64,000 bases of DNA from the NCBI GenBank assembly GCA_017853275.1, contig JAFMJV010000009.1, forward strand, positions 6,787-70,786, written 5' to 3'. This DNA comes from Chloroflexota bacterium (lineage in GTDB: Bacteria; Chloroflexota; Limnocylindria; Limnocylindrales; CSP1-4). The stretch's first letter is position 1. Every line of letters starts with the position of its first letter. Positions 6,186 through 58,948 of the stretch are shown here, piece by piece. A program made the translations under genes and the position numbers. Below the pieces are notes generated by a model. The model saw only the letters and a program-made list of their open reading frames with translations. It did no database searches and was not told the origin of the DNA.

Positions 6186-6823
6186 GCGAGCGGCCCGTCA
6201 GCCCGGCCCGTCCCGTCATGGGTGCGCCCGGTGCGCTCGTCGTCATCATCTCGGGGCCTTCCGGGGTGGGGAAGGACACGATCATCGAGGCGATGCGCCG
6301 GCGCGGTGAGCGGCCGGACCGCCACTACGTGATCACCTGCACGACCCGCGCACGGCGGGTCTACGAGGAGGACGGCGTCCACTACCACTTCCGGACGGCG
6401 GAGGAGTTCGCCCGGCTGCGGGTGGAGGACGGCCTCCTCGAGGCGGCGGAGGTCCACGGCAACTGGTACGGCACGCCGCGCGCCCAGGTCGCGGATGCGA
6501 TCGCCGCCGGGCAGGATGCGATCCTGAAGATCGACGTCCAGGGTGCCCGCGCGGTGCGTGACCGGATCCCCGGCGCCCTCCTCATCTTCGTCGTCCCGCC
6601 CTCGATCGAGGAGCTCACCGCCCGGCTCGTGGCACGCAGCACGGAGACGCCCGAGGCGCTCGCCCGGCGGATGCGCAACGCGACGGCGGAGATGGCCCGG
6701 GCGGGGGACTACGACCACGTCGTCGTCAACGAGACCGGCCAGGTCGAGCGGACCGCGGAGGCGATCGAGGAGATCATCGCCGCGGAGAAGGCCCGGTACC
6801 CGTCCCGCCGTCTCACCGTCTGA
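6182..6823 (+). CDS. gmk: guanylate kinase
   Basis: P-loop GPSGVGKDT and guanylate kinase core. Start taken at GTG 6182 (GTGA overlap with the rluD stop). ATG 6218 is an alternative. ORF-track start 6065 overlaps rluD. Confidence 0.88.
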   Translation: MSERPVSPARPVMGAPGALVVIISGPSGVGKDTIIEAMRRRGERPDRHYVITCTTRARRVYEEDGVHYHFRTAEEFARLRVEDGLLEAAEVHGNWYGTPRAQVADAIAAGQDAILKIDVQGARAVRDRIPGALLIFVVPPSIEELTARLVARSTETPEALARRMRNATAEMARAGDYDHVVVNETGQVERTAEAIEEIIAAEKARYPSRRLTV

Positions 6824-22864: not shown

Positions 22865-23612
22865 CGGCGACGCCGCCGGCCGCGAGGCCGGTGCCCTCGC
22901 CCGGCTCGCCGCGGAGCTCGGCCTCCACTTCTCGGACGAGCGCCTCCTCGAGCAGGCGCTGACCCACGGGAGCTTCGTCCACGAGCACCCGGATCCCGCG
23001 CCGCCCTCGAACGAGCGGCTCGAGTTCCTCGGGGATGCGGTGCTCTCGCTCCTCGTCGCCGAGGCGCTCTGGGAGGCCCATCCGGACGAGCCGGAAGGCG
23101 TCCTCACCGCGCGCCGTGCGGCGATCGTCTCGGACCGTGCCCTCGCCCGGGTGGCGGAGGGGATCGGGATCGGGGCAGCCCTGCGGCTCGGACAGGGCGC
23201 GGAGCGTGCCGGCGAGCGAAGCCGGGGGTCCGTCATCGCCTCCGCCCTGGAGGCGCTCATCGCTGCCGTCTACCTCGACCAGGGGCTGATCGCCGCCCGT
23301 GGGCTCGTCCGGCGCCTGGCCGCGGCCGAGCTCTCCGGCGACCTCCCGTCGGCTGCCCTCCAGCCCGCCAAGGTGCGTCTCCAGGTCGCGCTCGCCGCGG
23401 CCGGGCTCCCGGCGGCCGTCTACCACGTCGTGGAGGTGGGCGGTCCCGATCACGCCCGGACCTACCAGGTGGAGGCGCGGGTGGACGGCCGGGTGATGGG
23501 GCGCGGGATGGCCGGCAGCCGGCGCGCCGCGGAGGGTGCGGCCGCCGAGGAGGCGCTCCTCGCGCTCTCCGCCGGCGGCGCGGGCGAGCCCGCTCCGGAG
23601 CCGGAAGGGTGA
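22827..23612 (+). CDS. rnc: ribonuclease III
   Basis: [11 protein letters not shown] signature, C-terminal dsRBD. The only canonical start is ATG 22827 (38-nt overlap with acpP). Confidence 0.9.
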
Positions 23613-26600
23613 GCCGCGCACGCCTGAAGGCGTTGCGGATGACCGGCTTCAAGTCGTTCGCGGAGAAGACCCTCGTCGAGTTCGGGCCGGGGATCAGCGC
23701 GATCATCGGGCCGAACGGCTCCGGGAAGAGCAACCTCGCGGACGCGCTCCGGTGGTCGCTCGGGGAGCAGGGGCGGACGCTCCGCACGCGCCGCGCCGAG
23801 GACCTGATCTTCGCGGGCTCCTCCACGCGCAAGGCGCAGGGGATGGCGGACGTCACGCTCGTCATCGACAACGCGGACCGCCTCCTGCCCGTCGATTTCG
23901 CGGAGCTCGAGCTCGGCCGGCGCCTCTTCCGGTCCGGCGAGAACGAGTACCTCCTCAACCGCCAGCGGATCCGGCTGCGCGACCTCGTCGACCTGCTCGA
24001 CGAGGCGAACCTCGCGGACAACGCGTTCCTCTTCATCGGCCAGGGGATGGTCGACCAGGCGCTCGCCCTGCGCCCCGAGGAGCGCCGCCCGCTCTTCGAG
24101 GAGGCGGCGGGGATCCGCAAGCACGAGCGCCGCCGGCGTGCGGCCGAGGCCGAGCTCGCGGAGGCCGAGGGAAACCTCGAGCGCGTCCGCGATCTCCTCG
24201 GGGAGCTCCGCCCCCAGGCGAAGCGCCTCGCTGCCCAGGCGGAGCAGCAGGCCCGTCGCCGGGACGCGGCACGCGAGCTCGCGGATGCGCTCGTCGCCGT
24301 GGCCCGGGAGCGGCTCGGCGGTGCCGAACGGGAGATCGGTGCCCTCGATGGGCGGCTCACCGAGGCACGCGCGGCCACGGATGCCGCGCTCGCTTCGCTC
24401 CGCGCCGCGGAGGAGGAAGCCGAGGCGATCGCCCGCGCCCTCGCGGAGCGGGCGGAGGCGGAGCGCGCCGCGCGCGCCACCCTGGACGCCGCCCGCGGAC
24501 GGCTCGTGGACGAGCGGCTGGCAGGCTCCCGGCTGGCAGGGGACGGAGAGGCCCTGGAGCGCGAGCGCGAGCGGCTCCTCGGGGAGCAGCGGGCGGTCGC
24601 GGCACGCCTCGAGGCGGCGGGACGCGATCTCGCGCTGCCGCTCTCCGCTGCGGACGAAGCGGCCGAGGAGGCGCTGCGGGAGGTGGAGGCCGCGATCGCG
24701 GAGGTCCGCCGCTCGATCGCGGAGCTGCGCGAGGCCGGCCGGGATGACGCGGAGCGGCTCCGGATGGCGCGCGTGGAGCGCGAGGGGCGGCGTGCGGCAG
24801 CCGTCCAGGCAGCGCGGCGCGCATCGGAGGCCGCCGGCCGCGCGACGGACGCCACCGCGACCGCGGGGACGGCCGCCCAGCGTGCCGAGGCGGCAGCCGC
24901 ACGGCGGACGGAGACCGAGCGGGCGGCGTCGGAGGCCGTCGGGGAGGAGGAGCGCGCGGAGCGAGCGGCCGAGGCGGCGCGCGAGGCGCTCACGACCGCG
25001 GAGGCCGCCCTGCGTGACGCGCGGACGCGGGAGGCCGAGGCCCGTGCGGCACTTGCTGCTCTCGATGCCCGTCGTGGTGCGCTGGACGCGCTGATCGGTG
25101 CCGGCCGCAGCGATGGTGCGGTGACGCGGATCCGCTCCGCGGGTGGGCGGGCGTTGATGACCGGCCTGGAGGTGGATCCGCCGCTCCGCCGGGCCGTGGA
25201 GGCGATCCTCGGGGACCTCCTGCGCTCCCATGTCGTGGCCAGCGCGGCGGTCCCCGCGCTCGCGGATCTCGGCGGCTCGCTCGTCCTTGCCGAGGCGCCC
25301 GGGAGCCGCGCGGCGCGCGATGGGAGCGGCGCCGGGCGATCCGCATCACGGATCGCGGCGCTCGCGGCGGAATCGGGCGGTGGCCTCCTCGCGAGCGCCC
25401 TCCGGCGCGATCCGGACGGGCTGGGAGCGCGCCTCCTCGCGACCGCCGCATGGGTCCCGGAGCTGTCGGACGCCCTCGCCCTCCATGCGGCCGGCGAGAT
25501 CCCCACCGGATGGCGGGTCGCGACGCGGGATGGCGGGCTCGTCACGGACGACGGCGTCGTCCGCCTCCCCGCGGAGAGCTCGCTTCTCGAGCGGCGGGCG
25601 GAACGTGCGGAGCTGGACGGGCGCCGCGAGGCGGCGGAGGCGGCGGTCGTGGCCGGCACCGCCGCGGTGGCGGACGGCGGTCGTGCGGTCGAGGCCGCGC
25701 GCCGTGCGGCGGAGGCGGCCCGGACCACCCTGGAGGGTGCCCGCCGCGCGCGCCGGGTGGCGGACGAGGCGGATCGGTCGGCGGCCCGGCAGGCGGAGAC
25801 GACCGCCCGCGAGAGCGCCTGGGCGGCGCGGGAGCTGGAGCGGCTGGCGGCCCTCGCGGAGAGCACGCTCGCCGAGCGCGATGCGCTCGACGCGGAGGTG
25901 CAGCGGCTCGATGCGGCGGACCAGCCGGACGGGACGGAGAGCGGATCCCGCGTGGCGGCCGAGATCGCCGCGCGCGAGGCGGGGCTGCGCGCGCAGGAGG
26001 AGGAGCGGGATCGCCGCCGGGAGGCGGTCCGGCGTTCGCGCGAGCGGGTCGAGGCGGACCGTGAGCGCCGCCGCCGGGCGGAGCTCGTCACCGCCCTGGA
26101 CGGCGCGCGGAGCGCGGAGATCGACCGGGAGCTCGGACGCCTCGTCGGGGCGGAGGCCGACCTCGCGGTCCGGCGGGAGAGCCACGCGAGCGCCATCGCC
26201 GCCGGGCGGGCGGAGGAGGAGCGGGCAGCTGCCGCGCTCGCGGCGATCGAGGCGACCGGCGTGGATGACCGGACGCGGCTGCTCGGCGTCGAGCGGCGCG
26301 CCGGCGAGGCGCGCGAGGAGCTGCGCGTCGCGGAGGGCCGGGCCCGGAGCGCCGAGGTCCGCCTGCTCGAGCTGCGCGTCCAGCTCGATGCTGCGCGGGA
26401 GGGGCTCCTCGTGGAGCTCGCGGCGATCGGGCCGGATGGGGTGGCGGCCCTTCGCGCGGTGGCCCCGGCCGCCCCGGAGGCCGATGCCGCTGCGGCGCCG
26501 GCCTCGGACGAGGACCGGGTGGCTGCGCTCGAGGAGGCCCTCGCTGCGGCGCTCGCGGCGTGGCGGGACGGGGAAGGCGCCTACGCCGAGCCCGCCCCGA

Positions 26601-27286
26601 GCCCCGGCCGGCTGGCAGCGCTCCGGCGGCGGTACCACGAGCTCGGCGCCGGGAACCCCTATGCAGCCGAGGAGCTCGCCGAGCTCGGGACGCGGCTCGA
26701 TGCCCTGGACGCGCAGCGGGAGGACCTCGAGGAGGCGATGCGCGGGACACGCGAGCTGATCGCGCGCCTCGAGACCCTCATCTCGGAGCAGTTCCGGACG
26801 ACCTTCAGCGCGCTGGAAGGCGCCTTCGCCCGGCGCTTCGAGCAGCTCTTCGATGGCGGCGAGGCGCGCCTCTCCCTCACCCAGCCGGAAGACCTCGGCG
26901 CCACCGGCGTGGAGATCGTGGCGCGTCCGCCCGGCAAGCGCCGCCAGCCGCTCGCGATGCTCTCCGGCGGAGAGCGGGCGCTCACCGCGGTCGCGCTCCT
27001 CCTCGCGATGCTCGAGGTCCGCCCCGTTCCCTTCTGCGTCCTGGACGAGGTGGACGCCGCGCTGGACGAGGCGAACGTCGGTCGCTTCTCCTCGGCGCTC
27101 CGGACCCTGAGCGAGGAGATCCAGTTCGTCGTCATCACCCACAACCGGGGCACGATCGAAGCGGCGGACGCCCTCTACGGCGTCACGGTCGGCGACGATG
27201 CGGTGAGCCGGGTCATCTCGCTCCGCCTCGGTGACCGGGCGGCGAGCGCGGCAGAGGTCGCCCAGGCGCTCGAGGAGGCCACGTGA
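23609..27286 (+). CDS. smc: chromosome segregation protein SMC
   Basis: 1225 aa. GPNGSGKSN Walker A, two long Ala/Glu/Arg coiled coils, hinge, LSGGE signature and Walker B (FCVLDEVDAALD). Confidence 0.95.
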   Translation: MSRARLKALRMTGFKSFAEKTLVEFGPGISAIIGPNGSGKSNLADALRWSLGEQGRTLRTRRAEDLIFAGSSTRKAQGMADVTLVIDNADRLLPVDFAELELGRRLFRSGENEYLLNRQRIRLRDLVDLLDEANLADNAFLFIGQGMVDQALALRPEERRPLFEEAAGIRKHERRRRAAEAELAEAEGNLERVRDLLGELRPQAKRLAAQAEQQARRRDAARELADALVAVARERLGGAEREIGALDGRLTEARAATDAALASLRAAEEEAEAIARALAERAEAERAARATLDAARGRLVDERLAGSRLAGDGEALERERERLLGEQRAVAARLEAAGRDLALPLSAADEAAEEALREVEAAIAEVRRSIAELREAGRDDAERLRMARVEREGRRAAAVQAARRASEAAGRATDATATAGTAAQRAEAAAARRTETERAASEAVGEEERAERAAEAAREALTTAEAALRDARTREAEARAALAALDARRGALDALIGAGRSDGAVTRIRSAGGRALMTGLEVDPPLRRAVEAILGDLLRSHVVASAAVPALADLGGSLVLAEAPGSRAARDGSGAGRSASRIAALAAESGGGLLASALRRDPDGLGARLLATAAWVPELSDALALHAAGEIPTGWRVATRDGGLVTDDGVVRLPAESSLLERRAERAELDGRREAAEAAVVAGTAAVADGGRAVEAARRAAEAARTTLEGARRARRVADEADRSAARQAETTARESAWAARELERLAALAESTLAERDALDAEVQRLDAADQPDGTESGSRVAAEIAAREAGLRAQEEERDRRREAVRRSRERVEADRERRRRAELVTALDGARSAEIDRELGRLVGAEADLAVRRESHASAIAAGRAEEERAAAALAAIEATGVDDRTRLLGVERRAGEAREELRVAEGRARSAEVRLLELRVQLDAAREGLLVELAAIGPDGVAALRAVAPAAPEADAAAAPASDEDRVAALEEALAAALAAWRDGEGAYAEPAPSPGRLAALRRRYHELGAGNPYAAEELAELGTRLDALDAQREDLEEAMRGTRELIARLETLISEQFRTTFSALEGAFARRFEQLFDGGEARLSLTQPEDLGATGVEIVARPPGKRRQPLAMLSGGERALTAVALLLAMLEVRPVPFCVLDEVDAALDEANVGRFSSALRTLSEEIQFVVITHNRGTIEAADALYGVTVGDDAVSRVISLRLGDRAASAAEVAQALEEAT

Positions 27287-28182
27287 GCGAGGAGACGACC
27301 GCAGGGCTGGCGGCGGGGACGGAGCGCAGCCGGCGCGGCTTCATCGGGCGGATCCGCGATCTGCTCCGGGGCGGTGGCGACGACGCGACGTGGGAGGAGG
27401 TCGAGGAGGCGCTCATCGGTGCGGACCTGGGGGCGGACCTGACCCTCGAGGTCGTCGAGCGTGCGCGCGCGCGCCGCGATCTGGCACCGGAGATGGCGCT
27501 CCAGGGCGAGCTCGTCGGCCTCTTCGCGCCACGCGACCCGGTCCCCTGGCCGCGCAAGCCGTCCGCCACGACCCCCGCGGTCATCCTCGTCGTGGGCGTC
27601 AACGGGACGGGGAAGACGACGACGATCGGGAAGCTCGCGTGGCGCTTCCGCTCGCGGGGCGCCCGGGTCCTCCTCGCGGCGGGGGACACCTTCCGGGCGG
27701 CGGCGATCGAGCAGCTCGGCATCTGGGCGGAGCGGGCGGGGGTCCCGATCATCGCCCACGCGGCCGGCGCGGATCCCTCGGCCGTCGTCTGGGACGCCCT
27801 CGATGCCGCGGCGGCGCGGGGCGCGGACGTCGTCATCGTGGACACCGCCGGGCGGCTCCACACGAAGAGCAACCTGATGGACGAGCTGGCGAAGATCCGG
27901 CGCACGATCGCCAAGCGCCTGCCGGATGCGACGCCCGAGGTCCTCTTCGTCCTGGACGCAACGACCGGCCAGAACGGCCTTGCCCAGGCGAAGGCCTTCC
28001 ACGAGGCCGCGGGCCTCACCGCGATCGCCCTCACCAAGCTCGACTCCACCGCGAAGGGCGGGATCGCCTTCGCCATCGAGCGCTCCCTCGGCGTCCCCGT
28101 CCTCTTCGTCGGGGTGGGGGAGGGGATGGACGCGCTCCTCGACTTCGACCCCAACGCCTTCGCGCGGGCCCTCTTCGCCTGA
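27283..28182 (+). CDS. ftsY: signal recognition particle receptor FtsY (NG domain only)
   Basis: GVNGTGKTTT, DTAGR, TKLD GTPase motifs. GTGA overlap with smc. Confidence 0.93.
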   Translation: MSEETTAGLAAGTERSRRGFIGRIRDLLRGGGDDATWEEVEEALIGADLGADLTLEVVERARARRDLAPEMALQGELVGLFAPRDPVPWPRKPSATTPAVILVVGVNGTGKTTTIGKLAWRFRSRGARVLLAAGDTFRAAAIEQLGIWAERAGVPIIAHAAGADPSAVVWDALDAAAARGADVVIVDTAGRLHTKSNLMDELAKIRRTIAKRLPDATPEVLFVLDATTGQNGLAQAKAFHEAAGLTAIALTKLDSTAKGGIAFAIERSLGVPVLFVGVGEGMDALLDFDPNAFARALFA

Positions 28183-49273: not shown

Positions 49274-49771
49274 GTGAGCGAGCGGACGGAGCGTCTCGAC
49301 CAGCTCTTCGCGGAGGAGATCTCCGCGATCATCGCGCGGGAGATCGCCGATCCCCGGATCGGCTTCGTCACCGTCACGAAGGTCGATGTCGCCCCGGACC
49401 TCCGCCACGCCACGGTCTGGGTCTCCATCATCGGCGACGAGGCAGCCCAGACCGCCTCGCTCCGGGCGCTCGGACGGGCGATGCCCTTCGTCCGCGCCCG
49501 GCTCGGGCGGCTCCATCTCAAGCGGATCCCGGAGCTCCACCTGCGCCACGACGATTCGGTCGAGCGGGGGACGCGCGTCCTCCGTCTCATCGAGGAGATC
49601 GAGGATGGTGCGGCAGTGGAGAGCGTCCCCGACCTTGCGGCGCTCCCGGCCCCGGTGACCGCTCGCGGGGTCCCCACGCCCCGCCCCGAGCGCCGGCGTC
49701 GATCGACCGCCACCCCCGGGGACGGGAAGAGCGCGCCGCGCCGCCGGGCGGGAGGTCGTGATGCGCGCTGA
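49274..49771 (+). CDS. rbfA: ribosome-binding factor A
   Basis: RTERLDQLFAEEISAIIAREIADPRIGFVTVTKVDVAPDLRHATVWVS, with a basic C-terminal extension. Confidence 0.9.
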   Translation: MSERTERLDQLFAEEISAIIAREIADPRIGFVTVTKVDVAPDLRHATVWVSIIGDEAAQTASLRALGRAMPFVRARLGRLHLKRIPELHLRHDDSVERGTRVLRLIEEIEDGAAVESVPDLAALPAPVTARGVPTPRPERRRRSTATPGDGKSAPRRRAGGRDAR

Positions 49772-50819
49772 GGCCGCGCGTCCCGCACCCGGCCTCCACG
49801 CCCTCACCGAGGCGGACCTCGCGTCCGTGCCCGCGGCGGTCGTGGAACGGCTGCGCTCGGCGCACCGGATCCTGACCGTCTGTCACCGCGATCCCGAGGC
49901 GGATGCGCTCGGATCGGCGCTCGGCCTTGCGCTCGCGCTCGAGGAGATGGGGAAGCTCGCCACCCCGGTCTGCACGGACCCGGTGCCGGCGATGTACGAC
50001 TTCATGCCCGAGATCGGCCGCTTCCGCCGGGATCCGGATCCCTCCGTCGATTACGACCTCATCGTCGTGGGCGATTGCGGCGAGCTCGACCGGGTCGGGG
50101 CCGTCCGCGAGCGGCACGCGGAGCTCTTCGGGCGCGTCCCGATCGTGGATATCGACCACCACGGATCGAATACCGGGTTCGGGGTGGTGGACTGGATCGA
50201 CCCCCAGGCGGCCGCCACCTGCGAGATGGTCACCCTTCTCCTGCCGCACCTCGGTCTCCCGGTGGATGCGCGTGGCGGGACGATCGCCGAGGACCTCCTC
50301 GCGGGAGTCGTCATCGATACCGCGACCTTCCAGCACCCGAACACGACGCCGCGGACCCTGCGGGTCGGAGCGGAGCTGCGCGCCGCCGGGGCGCCGCTGG
50401 CGGAGATCTCGCGCCGGATCTACCGCACGAAGCCGACGGCGCAGCTGCGGCTCTTCGGGATCGTCCTCGGCCGTCTCGAGACGGCGATGGAGGGACGTCT
50501 CGTCTGGTCGGTCCTCGCGGACGATGACTTCCGCGTGGCTGAGGCCGTGCCGGAGATGTCCGAGGGCCTCATCGACCTCCTCGCGCAGGCCGACCGGGGA
50601 GCGGTCGCGATCCTCTTCAAGGACCAGGGGAGCCGGACGCGGATCAGCGTGCGCACCAAGGACGGCGGGGTGGATGCGATCGCGCTCACCGGCCGCTTCG
50701 GCGGCGGCGGTCATTCCCGGGCCGCGGGGGCCACGATCGACGAGCCCCTCTCCATCGCGCGCCCGCTCGTCCTCGCGCAGGCGGAGCGATTGATCGCCGA
50801 GCTCGGGGAGACGCGATGA
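49761..50819 (+). CDS. nrnA: DHH/DHHA1 phosphoesterase (NrnA-like oligoribonuclease / pAp phosphatase)
   Basis: HRDPEADALGS, DIDHHGSN, GGGGHSRAAGA motifs. ATG 49761 lies 5 nt after GGAGG (ORF-track GTG 49758). Confidence 0.85.
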   Translation: MRAEAARPAPGLHALTEADLASVPAAVVERLRSAHRILTVCHRDPEADALGSALGLALALEEMGKLATPVCTDPVPAMYDFMPEIGRFRRDPDPSVDYDLIVVGDCGELDRVGAVRERHAELFGRVPIVDIDHHGSNTGFGVVDWIDPQAAATCEMVTLLLPHLGLPVDARGGTIAEDLLAGVVIDTATFQHPNTTPRTLRVGAELRAAGAPLAEISRRIYRTKPTAQLRLFGIVLGRLETAMEGRLVWSVLADDDFRVAEAVPEMSEGLIDLLAQADRGAVAILFKDQGSRTRISVRTKDGGVDAIALTGRFGGGGHSRAAGATIDEPLSIARPLVLAQAERLIAELGETR

Positions 50820-51817
50820 GCGAGACCGAAGAGCGCCCGGAGGGCCGGGGCCCGCGCGATGGCGCGCGTCCGCCCTTCCGCCGGGAGCCGCGCCCGATCG
50901 TCCGGATGGACGGGATCATCGTGGTGGGGAAGCCCGCCGGGCCCACCTCCCATGATGTGGTCGCGATCGTCCGCCGGCTGACGAGCGTCCGTCGTGTCGG
51001 TCATGGCGGGACCCTCGACCCCTTCGCCTCCGGCGTCCTTCCCGTCTTCCTCGGCGGCGCGACGCGGATGGTGGAGTACCACCTCTCGGACGAGAAGGCC
51101 TACCGCGCGGTCATCGTCCTCGGTGCGGCGAGCACGACGGACGACCGGGATGGCGAGCTGACACGCTCCGAGGCGCCGCTGCCGGACCGCGCCGCGGTGG
51201 AGGACGCCCTCGGTGCCTTCCGTGGCCGGATCTCCCAGGTCCCGCCGGATCACAGCGCGGTCCATGTGGGAGGGCGGCGCGCCTACGAGCTGGCGCGGGG
51301 CGGCGGGAAGCCGGAGCTGACGCCACGCGAGGTGACGATCCATGAGCTGAGCGTCCGGGACTGGGACGTGCGCGATCCGGAGCGGCCGGCCGTGACCGTG
51401 GATGTGCGCTGCTCGGCGGGCACGTATATCCGGGCGATCGCCCGGGACCTCGGCGCCGCGCTCGGGTGTGGCGGCTACCTCGGCGCGCTCACGCGCACCG
51501 CAAGCGGGCCCTTCCGGCTCGAGGACGCCTATCCCCTGGAGACGGTGCGCGAGCGGCTCGCGACCGGACGGGTGCGGGAGATCCTCCTCCCGGCGGATAC
51601 CGGGCTCGATGCGTGGCCGCGCGTCGCGCCGGGTGCGGAGGACCTGACGGCCCTGCTCCGCGGCCAGGTCGTCCGGCTCCGCGGTGCGAACCTCCCCGAG
51701 CCGGGACCCGGCGGTCTCGTGCGGGTCGTGGACCCCGCGGGGATCTGCGTGGCGATGGCGCGCGTGGACGCGGGCCGCCTCCATCCCGAGAAGGTCCTCG
51801 GCGTCCCGGGCGAGTGA
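50816..51817 (+). CDS. truB: tRNA pseudouridine(55) synthase
   Basis: GIIVVGKPAGPTSHDVV, GHGGTLDPFASGVL catalytic Asp, PUA-like C-terminus. Confidence 0.93.
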   Translation: MSETEERPEGRGPRDGARPPFRREPRPIVRMDGIIVVGKPAGPTSHDVVAIVRRLTSVRRVGHGGTLDPFASGVLPVFLGGATRMVEYHLSDEKAYRAVIVLGAASTTDDRDGELTRSEAPLPDRAAVEDALGAFRGRISQVPPDHSAVHVGGRRAYELARGGGKPELTPREVTIHELSVRDWDVRDPERPAVTVDVRCSAGTYIRAIARDLGAALGCGGYLGALTRTASGPFRLEDAYPLETVRERLATGRVREILLPADTGLDAWPRVAPGAEDLTALLRGQVVRLRGANLPEPGPGGLVRVVDPAGICVAMARVDAGRLHPEKVLGVPGE

Positions 51818-52383
51818 TGCGGGTCGTTCCGGGGATCGCAGCGCTCGAGGCGGGGATCCCGTTCGTTGCCGCGATCGGTGTCTTCGACGGCGTCCATCTC
51901 GGTCACCGGGGCCTGATCGGGCGGCTCGTGGCCACGGCACGCGAGGTGGGCGCCACGCCCCTCGTCGTCACCTTCGACCCGCACCCCCAGCTCCTCCTCT
52001 CCGGGCGCACCCCGGAGCTCCTGTGCAGCGTGGAGGAGCGCGTCCGGCGCCTCGGCGCGCTCGGGGTGGAGATCGTCGTCGTGGAGCCGTTCACGACGGA
52101 GCTGCGCATGCTGAGCGCGGATGCCTTCCTCGACCGGCTCGCGGCGGGCCGGGATCTGCGCGGGCTCGTCCTCTCGCCGGAGTCCGGCTTCGGCCACGAC
52201 CGGGGTGGCACCCTCACCGGGCTCGCTCCGCGGGCGGCCCGTGACGATTGGCGCCTGGAGGCAGCACCGCTCGTGGAGGTGGATGGCACGCGGGTCTCGA
52301 GCCGGCGGATCCGGGCGCTCCTGGATGCCGGTGACCGGGCCGCGGCCGAGGCGCTTCTGGGTGGGACTCCGAGGGAGACCTGA
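51817..52383 (+). CDS. ribF: FMN adenylyltransferase (FAD synthetase) domain protein; RibF lacking the riboflavin kinase half
   Basis: GVFDGVHLGH and VSSRRIR motifs of the RibF N-terminal domain. Only about 189 aa. The stop at 52383 is followed 78 nt later by rpsO. GTG 51814 or ATG 51817. Confidence 0.8.
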   Translation: MRVVPGIAALEAGIPFVAAIGVFDGVHLGHRGLIGRLVATAREVGATPLVVTFDPHPQLLLSGRTPELLCSVEERVRRLGALGVEIVVVEPFTTELRMLSADAFLDRLAAGRDLRGLVLSPESGFGHDRGGTLTGLAPRAARDDWRLEAAPLVEVDGTRVSSRRIRALLDAGDRAAAEALLGGTPRET

Positions 52384-52419: not shown

Positions 52420-52460
52420 CCTCGGGTTAGACCACAGGAAATGGATGGTTGGAGGACCAG

Positions 52461-52730
52461 GTGCCGCTGACGCGGGAGACGAAGGACAAGGTCATCACGG
52501 ACTATGCGACCGTCGAGGGTGACACCGGGTCGCCCGAGGTCCAGATCGCGCTTCTCACGGAGCGGATCACCGGACTCACGGAGCATCTCCGGGCCTTCCC
52601 CAAGGATCACCACTCGCGCCGCGGACTCCTCAAGCTCGTGGGCCAGCGCCGCCGGCTCCTCGCGTATCTCATGCGCAAGGACAACGACCGGTATCGCACG
52701 GTCATCGCACGGCTCGGTCTGCGCCGCTAG
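52461..52730 (+). CDS. rpsO: 30S ribosomal protein S15
   Basis: [33 protein letters not shown] 52461 after GGAGGA 52451-52456. Confidence 0.94.
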
Positions 52731-52742
52731 CTGACGCGGCAC

Positions 52743-52783
52743 GCGGCCGCCCGGAGCGGCCGCCAGGACCCGATCCGGGTCCT
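52743..52783 (+). terminator. tandem GC-rich hairpins after rpsO (partial terminator / processing site ahead of pnp)
   Basis: GCGGCCGC-ccgga-GCGGCCGC (52743-52763) and AGGACCCG-atc-CGGGTCCT (52765-52783). No clear U-tract. Confidence 0.4.
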
Positions 52784-52826
52784 CTCGGGCGTCCGCCCGG
52801 GATGACCGACGGGCAAGGTCCGTCCT

Positions 52827-52842
52827 TCCTCCGCATGGAGGA
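52827..52842 (+). promoter_or_regulatory. hairpin pairing an anti-SD (TCCTCC) with the pnp SD (GGAGGA)
   Basis: TCCTCC-gcat-GGAGGA; the SD ends 3 nt before ATG 52846. Confidence 0.4.
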
Positions 52843-52845
52843 CAG

Positions 52846-55434
52846 ATGACGGTCACCACTCTCACGACCGAGTTCGGCGGTCGCACCCTCACGATCGAGA
52901 CGGGACGCATGGCGCGTCTCGCCGGCGGATCGGTGATGGTCCGCTATGGCGACACGGTCGTCCTCGGCGCGGCGAACCGCTCGGACCCGCGGCCCGGGCT
53001 TGACTTCTTCCCGCTCACCGTCGACTTCGAGGAGCGGATGTACGCCGCGGGCAAGATCCCCGGCGGCTTCATCAAGCGCGAGGGACGTGCCTCGGAGGCG
53101 GCGATCCTCGCAGCCCGCCTGACGGATCGCCCGATCCGCCCGCTCTTCCCCGAGGGCTACAAGGACGACGTGCAGATCGTCCTCACCGTCCTCTCCACGG
53201 ACCAGGAGAACGACCCGGACATCATCGGGACGATCGCCGCGTCCGCCGCGCTCACGATCAGCGAGATCCCCTTCCTCGGCCCGATCGGCGCCGTGCGGGT
53301 CGGCCGGATCGACGGTGAGCTCGTCCTCAACCCCACCTGGAGCCAGCTCGCCGAGTCGGAGCTCGACCTCGTCGTCTCCGGCACGCGGGACGCGATCATG
53401 ATGGTCGAGGCCGGGGCGAAGATCCTCCCCGAGGCCGTCATGGCCGAGGCGATCATCTTCGGTCACCGCTCCCTCGCGGCGATCATCGATCTCCAGGAGG
53501 AGCTGCGCGCCAAGGTCGGCAAGCCGAAGCGCACCCCCTACATCGAGCCCTCGACCGACTCGGTCGTCGATCTTCTCGATGCGCTCGCCGCCAAGCGCGA
53601 GCTCGTCGTCTTCGACGTCGAGACCACCTCCCGGGACGTGAAGCTCGGCGAGCTCGTCGAGATCGGCGCCGTGCGCATCAAGGGCGGCAAGGTCGCCGAC
53701 CGCTGGAGCACGCTCGTCAAGCCCGCGCGCGGGATCGTCGGAGCGCAGCTCCACGGCCTCACGGAGAAGGACGTCGCCAAGGCGCCGTCTCCGGCCGAGG
53801 CGGCCCGCACCTTCATGGACTGGGCCGGGGACGCGATCCTCGTCGGGCACAACGTCGGCTTCGACATCTCCTTCATCGAGGCGGCGCTCGCGGACGGCAC
53901 CCGGATCGGGCAGGGCCGGTATCTCGATACGCTCGTCCTGTCGCGGGAGGTCTACCCGGACCAGGACGCCTACAAGCTCGGTGACCTGATCCGCTTCTTC
54001 GGCCTCACGCCGGAGCCGAACCATCGCGCCCTCCCGGACGCGGAGGCCACGGCGGCGCTCCTCCTCCGGATGGCCGGGGAGCTCCCCGCGCGGGCCAAGG
54101 CCTACACGGACGCGGTCGCGGGCTCGATCCGCTCCCGCGCCAAGGGTGGGGATGGCTCGGCCGCGGACAAGGCGCTCGACGCCGCCAAGGTGGCCTCGGG
54201 CTTCTCGAAGAACCTCGCCACGCTCCTCCACAAGAAGGTCGTGCGCGAGCTCGTCCTCTCCGAGGGCGTCCGGATGGACGGCCGGGACACGGCGACGATC
54301 CGGCCGATCTCGATCGAGACGGGTCTCCTCCCGCGCGCCCACGGGTCCGCGCTCTTCACCCGCGGGCAGACCCAGGCGCTCACGGTCGCAACGCTCGGCC
54401 CGTCCTCGGACGTCCAGCGGATCGACACGATCAGCCCCCGGGACAGCAAGCGCTACCTCCACCACTACAACATGCCCCCGTACAGCACCGGCGAGAACAA
54501 GCCGATGCGCGGTCCGGGCCGGCGCGAGATCGGGCACGGTGCGCTCGCGGAGCGCGCCCTCATCCCGGTCCTCCCGACCCAGGAGGAGTTCCCGTACGTC
54601 ATCCGCCTCGTCTCGGAGTGCGTGACGTCGAACGGCTCCACCTCGATGGCCTCGACCTGTGGCTCCACCCTCGCGCTCATGGATGCCGGTGTGCCGATCA
54701 AGGCACCGGTCGCGGGCGCGGCGATGGGGCTCGTCACGGACGGCGATCGCTTCGAGGTCCTCACGGACATCCTCGGCAAGGAGGATGCCTTCGGTGACAT
54801 GGACTTCAAGGTGACCGGCACCGCGGAGGGGATCACCGCCCTCCAGATGGACATCAAGGTCCTGGGCATCAACGAGGCGATCATCCGCGACGGGCTGGAG
54901 AAGGCGCGCGTGGCGCGGCTCTTCATCCTCGACCGGATGCTGGACACCCTGCCGGAGGCGCGCACGGAGATGAGCGCCTACGCCCCGCGGATCATCACGA
55001 TCAAGATCAACCCCGAGCGGATCCGGGACATCATCGGCAAGGGTGGCGCGATGATCCGCAAGATCCAGGAGGAGACCGGAACGGAGATCAACGTCGAGGA
55101 CGACGGCAGCGTCGAGATCGCGGCGGTGAACTCCGAGAACTCCCGGAAGGCGATCCAGTGGATCGAGAGCCTGACCCGGGACGTCGAGGTCGGCTCGCTC
55201 TACCTGGGCAAGGTGACCCGGATCATGGGCTTCGGCGCCTTCGTCGAGATCCTCCCCGGCAAGGAAGGGCTCGTGCGCATCGGCGAGCTCGCCGACTACC
55301 ACGTCCCGACCGTCGAGGATGTCGTCTCGGTGGGTGACGAGATCATGGTCGTCGTCATGGAGATCGACCGCCAGGGTCGTGTCAACCTCTCGCGCAAGGC
55401 CGCGATGCAGCGGCACCTCGCGAAGGGGAGCTGA
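52846..55434 (+). CDS. pnp: polynucleotide phosphorylase with an inserted DEDDh exonuclease domain
   Basis: 862 aa. RNase PH1, split alpha-helical linker, RNase PH2 (SNGSTSMASTCG, GDMDFKVTGT, LQMDIK), KH (GKGGAMIRKI), S1 (GFGAFVEILPGKEGLV). An extra ~160 aa sits between the PH domains. Confidence 0.95.
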   Translation: MTVTTLTTEFGGRTLTIETGRMARLAGGSVMVRYGDTVVLGAANRSDPRPGLDFFPLTVDFEERMYAAGKIPGGFIKREGRASEAAILAARLTDRPIRPLFPEGYKDDVQIVLTVLSTDQENDPDIIGTIAASAALTISEIPFLGPIGAVRVGRIDGELVLNPTWSQLAESELDLVVSGTRDAIMMVEAGAKILPEAVMAEAIIFGHRSLAAIIDLQEELRAKVGKPKRTPYIEPSTDSVVDLLDALAAKRELVVFDVETTSRDVKLGELVEIGAVRIKGGKVADRWSTLVKPARGIVGAQLHGLTEKDVAKAPSPAEAARTFMDWAGDAILVGHNVGFDISFIEAALADGTRIGQGRYLDTLVLSREVYPDQDAYKLGDLIRFFGLTPEPNHRALPDAEATAALLLRMAGELPARAKAYTDAVAGSIRSRAKGGDGSAADKALDAAKVASGFSKNLATLLHKKVVRELVLSEGVRMDGRDTATIRPISIETGLLPRAHGSALFTRGQTQALTVATLGPSSDVQRIDTISPRDSKRYLHHYNMPPYSTGENKPMRGPGRREIGHGALAERALIPVLPTQEEFPYVIRLVSECVTSNGSTSMASTCGSTLALMDAGVPIKAPVAGAAMGLVTDGDRFEVLTDILGKEDAFGDMDFKVTGTAEGITALQMDIKVLGINEAIIRDGLEKARVARLFILDRMLDTLPEARTEMSAYAPRIITIKINPERIRDIIGKGGAMIRKIQEETGTEINVEDDGSVEIAAVNSENSRKAIQWIESLTRDVEVGSLYLGKVTRIMGFGAFVEILPGKEGLVRIGELADYHVPTVEDVVSVGDEIMVVVMEIDRQGRVNLSRKAAMQRHLAKGS
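53593..54081 (+). other. DnaQ/epsilon-like DEDDh 3'-5' exonuclease domain nested in PNPase (residues ~250-412)
   Basis: Exo I VVFDVETT (D257 nt 53614, E259 nt 53620). Exo II GHNVGFDISF (D340 nt 53863). Exo III HRALPDAEA (H393 nt 54022, D398 nt 54037). Same reading frame as pnp on both sides. Confidence 0.85.
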
Positions 55435-56616: not shown

Positions 56617-57269
56617 CGCCGGACGAGCGGCGGGCAGCGCTCGACGCGGTCGCCACGGAGGTCCGTGACTGCCGCCGCTGCCGCCTCGCCGGTGGCCGGA
56701 CGCAGGCGGTCCCCGGGGAAGGTGACCCGGAGACCGAGGTCGTCCTCGTGGGGGAGGGGCCCGGCCAGAACGAGGACCTCCAGGGCCGCCCCTTCGTGGG
56801 TGCCGCGGGAGGCTTCCTTGGAGAGCTTCTCTCGGTCATCGGCTGGCGGCGCGAGGAGGTCTTCATCACGAACGTCGTGAAGTGCCGGCCGCCCGGGAAC
56901 CGCGACCCGGAGCCCGACGAGATCGCGGCCTGCGCGCCATTCCTCCGGCGCCAGCTGGAGATCCTCGACCCGGCGCTCGTCGTGACCCTGGGTCGCTACT
57001 CCATGAACACGTTCCTGCCCGGCGCACGGATCGGGCAGGCGCACGGAACGGACCACCCGGCGCCCCCGGAGACGGGCGCACGGGACGCGCGGGTCTGCGC
57101 GATGTATCACCCGGCGGCAGCGTTCCGCCAGGGCGGTCTCCGTCAGACGATGAAGGTGGACATGCTCGCGGTCCCGGCGGCGCTCGCCCGGTCGCGACGA
57201 GAGCGCGCGGAGCGGTCGGCGGGAGCCGCGCCGGTCTCCGTGCCGGAGAGGGGATGGGAAGCGGGATGA
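56613..57269 (+). CDS. uracil-DNA glycosylase, family 4 (Fe-S type)
   Basis: CRRCRL, GEGPGQNED motif A, NVVKCRPPGNR, HPAAA motif B, four Cys for a 4Fe-4S cluster. GTGA overlap with asd. Confidence 0.88.
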   Translation: MTPDERRAALDAVATEVRDCRRCRLAGGRTQAVPGEGDPETEVVLVGEGPGQNEDLQGRPFVGAAGGFLGELLSVIGWRREEVFITNVVKCRPPGNRDPEPDEIAACAPFLRRQLEILDPALVVTLGRYSMNTFLPGARIGQAHGTDHPAPPETGARDARVCAMYHPAAAFRQGGLRQTMKVDMLAVPAALARSRRERAERSAGAAPVSVPERGWEAG

Positions 57270-58948
57270 CCTTCGGACGGAGCGAGAGCAGCTCGGCGCC
57301 GCCGCTACGGATCCTGCCGCTCGGCGGGCTTGGTGAGGTCGGCAAGAACCTGATGGTCATCGAGCTCGGTGACGAGATCGTGGTCATCGACTGCGGCCTG
57401 ATGTTCCCGGACGAGGAGATGTTCGGCATCGACCTCGTGGTCCCGGATGTCTCGTACATCGTGGAGCGGCGCGAGAAGGTGAAGGCCTTCCTCATCACCC
57501 ACGCGCACGAGGACCACGTGGGGGCGCTGCCGTACGTGCTGCCGCGCTTCCCCGGCGTCCCGGTCTACGCCTCCACGCTCGCCCGCGGCCTGCTGGGCAA
57601 CAAGATCCGCGAGCACCGATTGAAGGACAACCCGCTCCTCGCCTTCGATCCGGGGGAGACGATCAAGGTGGGCTCGATGGAGGCGACCGCCTTCCGGGTC
57701 GGCCACTCGATCCCGGACGCGATGGGGATCTGCCTGCGCACGCCGTACGGGAACATCATCCACACCGGCGACTTCAAGATCGACCAGACCCCCGTGGATG
57801 GGAAGGGGACGGACTTCCACCGGCTCGCGGAGTTCGGCAAGGAAGGCGTCCTGTGCCTGATGTCCGATTCCACGCGTGCGGAGTTCCCCGGCTTCACGCC
57901 CTCGGAGCGGACGGTCGGGGAGGCCTTCCGGGAGATCATGGAGGGCCTCGAGGGGCGCGTCATCGTGGCCACCTTCGCGAGCAACATCGCGCGGGTCCAG
58001 CAGGTCTTCGATGCCGCCGGGACCTTCGGCCGCAAGGTCGCGGTCATCGGTCGCTCGATGGAGCAGAACACCCGGATCGCCTCGGACCTGGGCTACCTGC
58101 GCTGGGGTCCGGACCAGCTGATCCCCAAGGACCGGATCCGGGAGATCCCGGACAACGAGCTGTGCATCGCCACCACCGGCGCCCAGGGCGAGCCGATGGC
58201 CGGCCTTGCCCGGATGGCGAACCGGGACCATCGTTTCGTGGAGATCGGCCCCGGGGACACGGTGATCGTGAGCGCCAGCCCGATCCCCGGCAACGAGGAA
58301 TCGGTCGCCCGCACGATCGACAACCTCTTCAAGAACGGCGCGAACGTCTACTACCATGCGAACAAGCGCGCCCACGTCTCCGGGCACGCGAGCCAGGAGG
58401 AGCTGAAGCTGATGCTCAACCTGACCCGCCCCCGCCATTTCATCCCCATCCACGGGGAGTTCCGGATGCTCGTCCAGCACGGCCGGCTCGCGGCCGAGGT
58501 CGGCGTGGCCCCGGAGAACATCTACATCATCGAGAACGGCCAGCCGATCGACTTCGCCGCGGACGGGAGCGCCCGCCGGGGGACGCGGGTCGAGGCGGGC
58601 CGGGTCTTCGTGGACGGGCTCTCGGTGGGCGAGGTCGGGGATGTCGTCCTCCGTGACCGGCGGGCGCTGGCGAACGACGGGATGTTCCTCGTCGTCGTGG
58701 CGGTGGACAAGCAGACCGGCGAGATGGTGGGCCGCCCCGAGATCGTCACGCGCGGCTTCGTCGCCGAGCCGGACGATCGTCTTCTCGAGGGGGCAGCGGA
58801 GCGGATCGCGAGGGCGATCGAGAACCCCGGCGACCACACGAGCGAGATCGCCCTCCTGAAGGCGCAGATCAAGGACGGGCTCTCCCAGTACCTCTACGAG
58901 CGGACGAAGCGCCGCCCGCTCGTCTTCCCCGTCGTCGTCGAGGTGTAG
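57266..58948 (+). CDS. rnj: ribonuclease J
   Basis: Beta-CASP metallo-beta-lactamase: LGGLGEVGKN, HAHEDHVGALP, C-terminal domain. ATGA overlap with udg. Confidence 0.93.
   Translation: MTFGRSESSSAPPLRILPLGGLGEVGKNLMVIELGDEIVVIDCGLMFPDEEMFGIDLVVPDVSYIVERREKVKAFLITHAHEDHVGALPYVLPRFPGVPVYASTLARGLLGNKIREHRLKDNPLLAFDPGETIKVGSMEATAFRVGHSIPDAMGICLRTPYGNIIHTGDFKIDQTPVDGKGTDFHRLAEFGKEGVLCLMSDSTRAEFPGFTPSERTVGEAFREIMEGLEGRVIVATFASNIARVQQVFDAAGTFGRKVAVIGRSMEQNTRIASDLGYLRWGPDQLIPKDRIREIPDNELCIATTGAQGEPMAGLARMANRDHRFVEIGPGDTVIVSASPIPGNEESVARTIDNLFKNGANVYYHANKRAHVSGHASQEELKLMLNLTRPRHFIPIHGEFRMLVQHGRLAAEVGVAPENIYIIENGQPIDFAADGSARRGTRVEAGRVFVDGLSVGEVGDVVLRDRRALANDGMFLVVVAVDKQTGEMVGRPEIVTRGFVAEPDDRLLEGAAERIARAIENPGDHTSEIALLKAQIKDGLSQYLYERTKRRPLVFPVVVEV

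Follow-up and report, generated by a model that had tools for sequence, protein, structure and literature searches.

A DnaQ/PolC-type DEDDh exonuclease domain is inserted in the polynucleotide phosphorylase of Limnocylindria-type Chloroflexota

Introduction

We analysed a stretch of 64,000 nt of DNA (the window) from a Chloroflexota bacterium assigned to Limnocylindria, Limnocylindrales, CSP1-4, spanning positions 6,787 to 70,786 of the forward strand of contig JAFMJV010000009.1 (assembly GCA_017853275.1). The window contains the pnp gene for polynucleotide phosphorylase (PNPase), and its product carries a complete DEDDh-type 3'-5' exonuclease domain in the middle of the helical domain that joins the two RNase PH-like cores. 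To our knowledge, PNPase is among the most conserved and best-studied enzymes of RNA decay, and its domain layout is regarded as unvarying across the range from bacteria to human mitochondria. An earlier inspection of the letters and their open reading frames (ORFs), here called the sequence-only reading, had proposed this architecture. We followed it up with profile, homologue and structure searches, structural models and a comparison of relatives.

A DEDDh domain interrupts the helical domain of PNPase

The pnp ORF begins with ATG and runs unbroken for 862 amino acids; the N-terminus of the protein, MTVTTLTTEFGGRTL, agrees with the N-termini of homologues. The NCBIfam equivalog for PNPase, TIGR03591, scored 947.8 bits against a cut-off of 525, and NF008805 scored 946.4 bits against a cut-off of 471; both models matched in two stretches that flank the insert. 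The profile matches anticipated by the sequence-only reading (RNase_PH, PNPase alpha, RNase_T, RNase_PH, KH and S1) were recovered: Pfam identified two RNase_PH domains, RNase_PH_C, RNase_T, KH_1 and S1 in the 862-residue protein, while PF03726, the model of the PNPase helical domain, matched only in its last third, with profile positions 56-81 falling on residues 456-481. Pfam and the structural models agree that the order of PNPase domains (PH1, helical domain, PH2, KH, S1) is kept, and that the helical domain is interrupted by the insert (Table 1).

The PNPase motifs RREIGHG, SNGSTSMASTCG, GDMDFKVTGT and LQMDIK were all found in the protein. The PH2 active site comprises the RNA-binding arginines of RREIGHG, a serine/threonine-rich phosphate loop and the metal-binding aspartates of GDMDFK; the active-site motifs GRREIGHGALAERA, SNGSTSMASTCG and GDMDFKVTGT are conserved among relatives. 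Judged by these scores and motifs, the PNPase parts of the fused protein are intact. G+C content is 0.68-0.72 across the gene, including the insert, without a compositional break.

Alignment with the solved PNPase of Staphylococcus epidermidis (5yjj) placed residues 7-250 on chain residues 21-264, and residues 461-854 on chain residues 316-709. Where 5yjj has 51 residues, the query has 210, a net gain of about 159 amino acids, which bears out the surplus of about 160 that the sequence-only reading had estimated from length. In the inter-PH helical domain, the insertion point follows the second helix and precedes the third. Positions 53593-54081 of the window correspond to residues 250-412, and the inserted DEDDh domain itself comprises 162 amino acids. 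PF00929 (RNase_T) matched residues 254-406 over its whole length (profile positions 1-164 of 164) with an E value of 4e-25 and a score of 89.7-93.4 bits, compared with a gathering score of 24. Matches of this significance lie far outside the range of chance. The catalytic residues of Exo I (DxE), Exo II (D) and Exo III (H-x4-D) occur in that order and are the five that had been named from the letters: D257, E259, D340, H393 and D398.

The AlphaFold2 monomer of the full-length protein had a mean predicted local distance difference test (pLDDT) score of 69.7, yet reached 85-95 over residues 150-480. A separate model of residues 196-480 had a pLDDT of 87.8 and a predicted template modelling score (pTM) of 0.81, with the exonuclease domain at about 90-98; the insert and helical domain taken together are modelled at pLDDT 88-95. 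On the N-terminal side of the insert, the models place helices 196-224 and 238-248, then a four-residue link and strand 1 (253-260), which bears Exo I. On the C-terminal side, the Exo III helix that starts at residue 395 runs unbroken to 432, where it constitutes the next helix of the helical domain, and helices 437-451 and 455-473 come after it. In these models the helical domain appears complete despite the insert, with the nuclease mounted through one rigid helix. A Foldseek search with the whole model returned PNPases only, none with an extra domain. Profile matches, the alignment to solved PNPase and the AlphaFold2 models concur with the earlier claim that a complete, in-frame DEDDh domain splits the helical linker.

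Table 1. The pnp gene of the window, its parts and adjoining features (positions in the window).
Feature	Position	Strand	Evidence
pnp, PNPase with inserted DEDDh exonuclease domain	52846..55434	+	ORF listing, TIGR03591, Pfam set
PH1, first RNase PH-like core domain with RNase_PH_C, residues 1-210	52846..53475	+	Pfam RNase_PH; RNase_PH_C residues 145-208; aligns to 5yjj residues 21-225
Helical domain, N-terminal half, residues 211-250 (end of long helix 196-224 and helix 238-248)	53476..53595	+	AlphaFold2; 5yjj alignment up to residue 250
DnaQ/PolC-type DEDDh 3'-5' exonuclease domain (insert), residues 251-412	53596..54081	+	PF00929, NF005906, TIGR00573, 2p1j, AlphaFold2/Foldseek
Exo I motif VVFDVETT (D257, E259)	53605..53628	+	D257/E259 invariant in 132/132 sequences and 13 metagenome loci
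Exo II motif VGHNVGFD (D340)	53842..53865	+	D340 invariant in 132/132; V333, G334, H335, F339 nearly invariant
Exo III epsilon-type motif HRALPDAEA (H393, D398)	54022..54048	+	H393/D398 invariant in 132/132; start of long helix 395-432
Helical domain, C-terminal half, residues 413-480 (helices to 432, 437-451, 455-473)	54082..54285	+	AlphaFold2; PF03726
PH2, second RNase PH-like core domain with RREIGHG, SNGSTSMASTCG, GDMDFKVTGT	54286..54960	+	Pfam RNase_PH residues 485-617; alignment to 5yjj and 8zaw
KH domain, residues 717-774	54994..55167	+	Pfam KH_1, E 1.2e-11
S1 domain, residues 780-851	55183..55398	+	Pfam S1, E 4.5e-16
rpsO-pnp intergenic leader, strongly structured; GGAGG ribosome-binding site before ATG	52731..52845	+	RNA fold
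rpsO (ribosomal protein S15), canonical pnp partner, directly upstream	52449..52730	+	ORF translation; Ribosomal_S15 gene likewise in relative L014
DHH/DHHA1 gene, GGGH motif, between rbfA and truB	49758-50819	+	Best NCBIfam match NrnA

The insert is closest to the exonucleases of PolC, DinG and epsilon

Searched against NCBIfam in isolation, the insert matched the DEDD domains of NF005906, DinG and PolC at E values of 1e-43 to 1e-30, with 146.6 bits on the N-terminal DEDD domain of NF005906. On the 'dnaq' domain model TIGR00573 it scored 73.3 bits, just above the cut-off of 71.5, and 69.6 bits within the whole protein. The closest sequence match in the PDB was the PolC exonuclease domain of Thermotoga maritima (2p1j, E 3.6e-25), followed by PolC, S. 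aureus DinG, Cas2-DEDDh, DnaQ domains, epsilon and ExoX. Fold comparison gave the same ranking. With the model of residues 196-480, Foldseek placed a PolC exonuclease (9qpc) first, at a root-mean-square deviation (rmsd) of 2.5 Å over 171 columns and 32% identity; DinG, epsilon and Cas2-DEDDh came after it, epsilon with a target-normalised template modelling score (TM-score) of 0.80. The modelled insert has the RNase H-like alpha/beta fold of the DnaQ type (AlphaFold2 and Foldseek).

Three more specific assignments were considered and rejected. Orn/REXO2 does not fit, as sequence and fold are closest elsewhere: Orn was absent from the 25 of 28 NCBIfam matches listed for the insert, no Orn or RNase T chain was among its PDB sequence matches at E<=1e-3, and Orn structures appeared by fold only from rank 45, after PolC, DinG, epsilon, Cas2-DEDDh, RNase T and ExoX. 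RNase T was set aside for the missing sequence match and a low fold rank (from rank 15, at 22-24% identity and rmsd 3.5-5.6 Å); the Pfam name 'RNase_T' spans the whole DEDDh superfamily. As DnaQ proper, the insert scored 69.5 bits on TIGR01406 (dnaQ_proteo), for which the cut-off is 222.7. In the model it also lacks the C-terminal tail with which epsilon binds alpha and the clamp, running directly into the PNPase helical domain instead. Given this failure as DnaQ proper, the Joint Genome Institute (JGI) name 'DNA polymerase III epsilon subunit family exonuclease' is a domain-level label only.

The nearest free relatives, found outside PNPase, are 40-46% identical to the insert and fused to GIY-YIG, a DinG-type helicase, PHP/Pol III alpha or BRCT. 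Both sequence and modelled fold place the insert in the clade of PolC, DinG and Pol III epsilon, apart from Orn and RNase T. The sequence, fold and nearest-relative rankings together indicate a module drawn from a promiscuous DnaQ-like clade tied to DNA metabolism.

The fused gene is the standard pnp of its lineage

Orthologues of similar length, for which the sequence-only reading had suggested a search, proved common in relatives. The top 120 matches of a full-length search were proteins of 859-870 amino acids, 79-85% identical to the query, all of which had PF00929 together with the PNPase domains. Where an organism is given (the NCBI names), it is mostly Chloroflexota or Ca. Limnocylindrales. 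In databases the fused proteins go by one of two names, 'polyribonucleotide nucleotidyltransferase' and 'DNA polymerase III epsilon subunit family exonuclease', and PF00929 is precomputed for them. A more distant cluster, of 864-residue proteins from Ca. Limnocylindrus, shares only 53% identity in the exonuclease domain.

A single scan of a genome collection, made with peptides specific to the window and yielding close relatives only, found the fusion in 7 Chloroflexota species-representative genomes; four of these loci are complete and uninterrupted, and three are cut by contig ends. Among metagenomes, the fusion was present on 18 contigs, each time as one tblastn segment in one frame, with 64-79% overall identity and a G+C content of 0.59-0.68; no stop codon interrupted the 13 of these loci that were translated. 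The remaining 62 of the 80 best metagenome loci matched the exonuclease domain only, as did the non-PNPase entries of a library of representatives clustered at 50% identity. No independent PNPase-DEDDh fusion in other lineages was seen among the best 150 representatives of that library or the 80 best metagenome loci. One fused family was seen, and weaker or independent fusions lower in the lists are possible. The architecture is the standard pnp of the whole lineage, with at least 150 database examples, and is not rare. That it is real and conserved we regard as virtually certain.

Our first homologue search, with residues 201-490, returned only fragments of at most 508 amino acids, many of them named 'exonuclease domain-containing protein, partial'. 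A naturally split gene was rejected as their source: the fragments are out-of-frame tails or contig-end cuts of the fused gene, of which 120 intact proteins of 859-870 amino acids were found. Members at about 40% identity (P0083, P0097, P0099, P0101 and P0108) had the appearance of a second lineage and turned out to be multiply frameshifted copies. An apparent insert-free allele, P0258 (711 amino acids, in the 90% cluster of P0121), is N-terminally truncated and still contains the insert.

Numerous frameshifted copies, some of them shifted several times, lie on long contigs of metagenome-assembled genomes (MAGs; P0001, P0010, P0029, P0056, P0083, P0097, P0099 and P0101) and are probably indel errors of high-G+C assemblies. 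The frameshifts make the pnp gene look split and inflate its apparent divergence. Some matches carry the names of other taxa. The full-length search gave P0335 (Sulfotelmatobacter) and P0369 (Anaerolineae), about 80% identical to the window protein. Three fragments matched residues 201-490 at 58-71% identity: P0021 (Polarisedimenticolia), P0053 (Patescibacteria) and P0064 (Deferrimicrobiaceae). All five are probably mis-binned Limnocylindria contigs, and the fusion is unlikely to occur in the phyla named.

Purifying selection acts on the insert, which was probably inherited with its host gene

D257, E259, D340, H393 and D398 were invariant in all 132 full-length proteins and in 13 metagenome loci. 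Pairwise identity within the exonuclease domain goes down to 43%, and the length of the insert stays constant at 160-165 amino acids. Mean column conservation was 0.75 in the insert, about 0.9 in PH1 and PH2, and 0.68 in the helical halves. Ratios of nonsynonymous to synonymous substitution (dN/dS, Nei-Gojobori) were 0.18-0.49 for the insert and 0.08-0.17 for the core. As these values indicate, the insert is under purifying selection that is laxer than that on the core and similar to that on the helical domain which hosts it.

Divergence of the exonuclease domain was correlated with that of the core (Mantel r 0.81, a value reached in 0 of 999 permutations). This co-divergence fits a single old insertion that was inherited vertically. 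An origin as an intein or other mobile insertion was rejected on the same ground; in addition, Pfam gave no intein or HNH/LAGLIDADG match, repeats at the boundaries did not exceed chance level, and the G+C content is uniform.

The gene order around pnp is that of a housekeeping locus

In the window, the genes run proS, nusA, infB, rbfA, DHH/DHHA1 gene, truB, ribF, rpsO, pnp, asd, RNase J and ftsK, and the gene order on a 2.0-Mb contig of the relative L014 matches it. This canonical synteny marks the gene as the housekeeping pnp orthologue and not an accessory paralogue; by gene order and sequence, the fused gene is the housekeeping PNPase of a Limnocylindria-type Chloroflexota bacterium.

The leader between rpsO and pnp folds with -69 kcal/mol (z-score -2.98 relative to shuffled sequences) into four to five G+C-rich hairpins. 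It may combine the rpsO terminator with a pnp leader like the autoregulation element of E. coli pnp. The DHH/DHHA1 gene of the same operon scored 69.9 bits on NrnA, far under the equivalog cut-off of 350, and a DHHA1 gene occupies the matching place in L014. Its product is possibly a nanoRNase or a 3'-phosphoadenosine 5'-phosphate (pAp) phosphatase.

Discussion

We consider it probable that the insert is a hydrolytic 3'-5' exonuclease built into PNPase, which works on RNA 3' ends together with phosphorolysis. That the domain is catalytically active is very likely, because all catalytic residues are strictly conserved at a domain identity as low as 43%. RNA as its main substrate is a less secure proposal, one that we favour slightly.

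As a 3'-5' exonuclease, the insert would depend on Mg2+ or Mn2+ for hydrolysis. The helical domain of E. coli PNPase is dynamic and is located on the other side of the ring from S1 and KH; it also forms part of a pore that offers a second route to the active site and was proposed to serve the exchange of nucleoside diphosphates (NDPs) and phosphate (2009, PMC2723993). Because the helical domain of solved PNPases lies on the face opposite KH/S1, the trimer is predicted to carry three hydrolytic sites on this 'exit' face, beside the side pore to the phosphorolytic site. They may be held fairly rigidly, given the single long helix (395-432) that links Exo III to the helical domain. There the domain would cooperate with phosphorolysis in RNA decay by taking what phosphorolysis handles poorly, such as 3' ends at which the PH2 site stalls, or limit oligonucleotides that are short. 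Alternatively, at low phosphate, with the reversible reaction of PNPase running in the direction of synthesis, it might take RNA of any kind; hydrolysis would be an irreversible route that is independent of phosphate. One polypeptide would then be a dual-chemistry 3' exonuclease, comparable to the PH-ring exosomes that recruit hydrolytic nucleases.

This last comparison can be extended, tentatively, to a self-contained bacterial counterpart of the exosome, a possibility that we hold at rather low odds. RNA would thread the PH ring, entering on the side of KH and S1, and either undergo phosphorolysis at PH2 or pass on to the DEDDh sites of the exit face. Decay would be independent of phosphate and go to mononucleotides, and the ratio of phosphate to NDP, or the structure of the RNA, would choose between an energy-conserving route to NDPs and an irreversible one to nucleoside monophosphates. 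If this were true, two catalytic chemistries would be coupled in a PNPase for the first time, and the design that joins a PH ring to a hydrolytic nuclease would have been reinvented independently, in covalent form.

Several points weigh against an active exonuclease that works in RNA decay. Both activity and substrate are predictions from sequence. The closest kin of the insert, by sequence and by fold, are all proteins of DNA metabolism (PolC and epsilon proofreading, the DinG exonuclease, Cas2-DEDDh, DEDD-GIY-YIG). The NrnA-like gene in the pnp operon, its score below the cut-off, could already serve the turnover of nanoRNA. The insert has evolved two to four times faster than the core, and the full-length model is poor over parts of the PH, KH and S1 regions.

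Four other explanations were weighed. An artefact, either a chimeric assembly or a pseudogene made by a stray insertion, has a negligible probability. Many database relatives were first met as 'partial' fragments of 508 amino acids or less, several ending out of frame, but these are frameshifted or contig-end copies of the fused gene, and 132 full-length proteins, 4 complete genome frames (plus 3 cut by contigs) and 18 metagenome loci agree with one another. Neither a compositional break nor meaningful repeats mark the boundaries, and recurrence in more than 150 independent sequences excludes a chimeric assembly. It is also highly improbable that the insert is a non-catalytic module, that is, a plug with a structural or regulatory role, which might gate the side pore or bind nucleotides or a partner protein, or else a domain that is merely tolerated where it sits. 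Its faster evolution than the core (dN/dS of 0.2-0.5 versus about 0.1, column conservation of 0.75 versus 0.9) would suit such a module, as would the helical domain, for which mobility and an influence on activity have been reported (PMC2723993). Inactivated DEDD domains, however, normally lose their catalytic residues, and here all five, within conserved Exo I, II and III motifs, are invariant in 132 of 132 proteins and 13 loci although domain identity falls to 43%.

The two remaining alternatives grant the insert activity and differ in its target. If the DEDDh domain has kept its ancestral DNA specificity, it would trim single-stranded DNA (ssDNA) hydrolytically from the 3' end in recombination or repair, extending the ssDNA activities of PNPase. 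This explanation, which we think unlikely, draws on the best sequence matches (NF005906, DinG, PolC, the dnaq model, Cas2-DEDDh and epsilon) and the best folds, on the DNA-related fusion partners of the free relatives, and on Bacillus subtilis PNPase, which is reported both to shorten and to lengthen the ends of ssDNA and to have a part in the repair of double-strand breaks (PMC3241651). Against it stand the RNA-handling parts of the protein (KH, S1 and the PH2 site), which are strongly constrained, and the rpsO-pnp operon of RNA metabolism. DEDDh exonucleases of the PolC/DinG/epsilon clade are, moreover, often indifferent to the sugar, so ancestry does not fix the substrate; S. aureus DinG reportedly degrades both ssDNA and single-stranded RNA. 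Sequence cannot decide between a function in RNA decay and one at DNA ends. A dedicated nanoRNase, by comparison, would be a narrower form of the explanation we favour, and was the first role suggested in the sequence-only reading: the domain would stand in for Orn and digest nothing but the limit products of 2-5 nt that leave the PH2 site. We hold this, too, to be rather improbable. Orn and REXO2 are DEDDh enzymes, and REXO2 is reported to control short mitochondrial RNAs that come from the processing and decay machinery (PMC7261184, PMC6521605); the helical domain, for its part, borders the active-site pore, a possible exit for small products (PMC2723993). But the insert is not Orn-like in sequence or fold rank, and the operon has an NrnA-like DHH/DHHA1 gene both in the window and in L014. 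Orn and RNase T act as homodimers, in which the substrate site is composite; members of the PolC/DinG/epsilon clade are monomers. The analogy to Orn drawn in the sequence-only reading is weakened by these results.

Relation to known systems

Canonical PNPases (E. coli Pnp, Streptomyces antibioticus GPSI/PNPase 1E3H, S. epidermidis 5yjj) are like the fused protein in domain order, PH2 motifs and the rpsO-pnp locus. They are without the 162-residue DEDDh insert, and the solved chains matched by sequence are 546-784 residues long. PolC-type DNA polymerase III offers a precedent for the insertion itself: its exonuclease is of the same DEDDh clade and likewise sits in frame within a nucleic-acid enzyme, inside the PHP domain. 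Because the PolC domain is an internal insertion, the termini of such domains are evidently compatible with insertion. In PolC the host is a templated DNA polymerase and the domain proofreads DNA, whereas here the host is a template-independent RNA phosphorylase/polymerase. The DinG N-terminal exonuclease, Cas2-DEDDh and DEDD-GIY-YIG (NF005906) use the same promiscuous module, but as terminal fusions to partners from DNA metabolism, in contrast to the internal insertion in an RNA-decay enzyme seen here.

An RNase PH-type ring is likewise combined with hydrolytic 3'-5' sites in the exosome (Rrp6, Rrp44) and in the plant exosome. Rrp6 is a DEDDy enzyme on the cap side of the exosome. The exosome nucleases are separate, non-covalent subunits; here, the DEDDh domain is covalent in the ring protomer and probably on the side opposite KH/S1. 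The plant exosome is reported to combine phosphorolytic and hydrolytic activity (PMC5735172). Other reports describe a human mitochondrial PNPase-SUV3 degradosome that acts with REXO2, a homologue of oligoribonuclease (PMC7261184), and a Caulobacter degradosome that contains RNase D (PMC4245959). PNPase with Orn/REXO2 in human mitochondria and PNPase with RNase D in Caulobacter thus pair phosphorolysis with DEDD-type hydrolysis, but on separate polypeptides. Orn/REXO2 belong to another DEDDh subfamily and are dimeric; RNase D is DEDDy.

Full-text literature searches, with subscription-only papers outside their coverage, found no description of the PNPase-DEDDh architecture, and none of the solved PNPase structures reached by sequence and fold searches carries a DEDDh domain. 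The novelty suggested by the sequence-only reading therefore holds for publications and structures and not for databases, where the architecture is common and PF00929 is annotated automatically. We conclude that this is an undescribed variant of a known enzyme, real and conserved, with a predicted function.

Throughout a lineage of Chloroflexota that are abundant in soil and fresh water, every PNPase protomer contains a second, predicted hydrolytic exonuclease whose catalytic residues are strictly conserved. If the domain is active, it would be a natural union of phosphorolytic and hydrolytic 3'-5' degradation in a single polypeptide, and a simple system in which to ask why cells pair PH-type rings with hydrolytic nucleases, what part is played by the little-understood helical domain and its side pore, and how decay continues when phosphate is limiting. 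Annotation pipelines currently name the fused proteins inconsistently, and label frameshifted copies 'exonuclease domain-containing protein, partial'.

Other observations in the window

The surroundings of pnp are rich in genes of RNA metabolism (nusA, infB, rbfA, truB, rpsO and RNase J). The RNase J gene (56726-58945, plus strand) lies two genes downstream of pnp and is followed by ftsK; it scored 670.9 bits on the RNase J1 model, and an RNase J family subfamily model was above its cut-off. In the frame read from stop to stop, the match begins only at residue 195, which makes a true start well downstream of 56726 probable.

The ribF ORF (51466-52383, plus strand) has the FAD_syn (FMN adenylyltransferase) domain only. 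It ends 66 nt before rpsO, which leaves no space for a flavokinase domain, and the homologue in L014 (7788-8717) has both FAD_syn and Flavokinase; the ribF of the window is either monofunctional or truncated.

On the minus strand, positions 23462-27340 hold two long ORFs that have no Pfam match. Read between stop codons they comprise 627 and 664 amino acids; counted from their first start codons, 589 and 598. Both are antisense to a 1225-residue ORF on the plus strand (23609-27286) and are probably shadow ORFs of a high-G+C gene.

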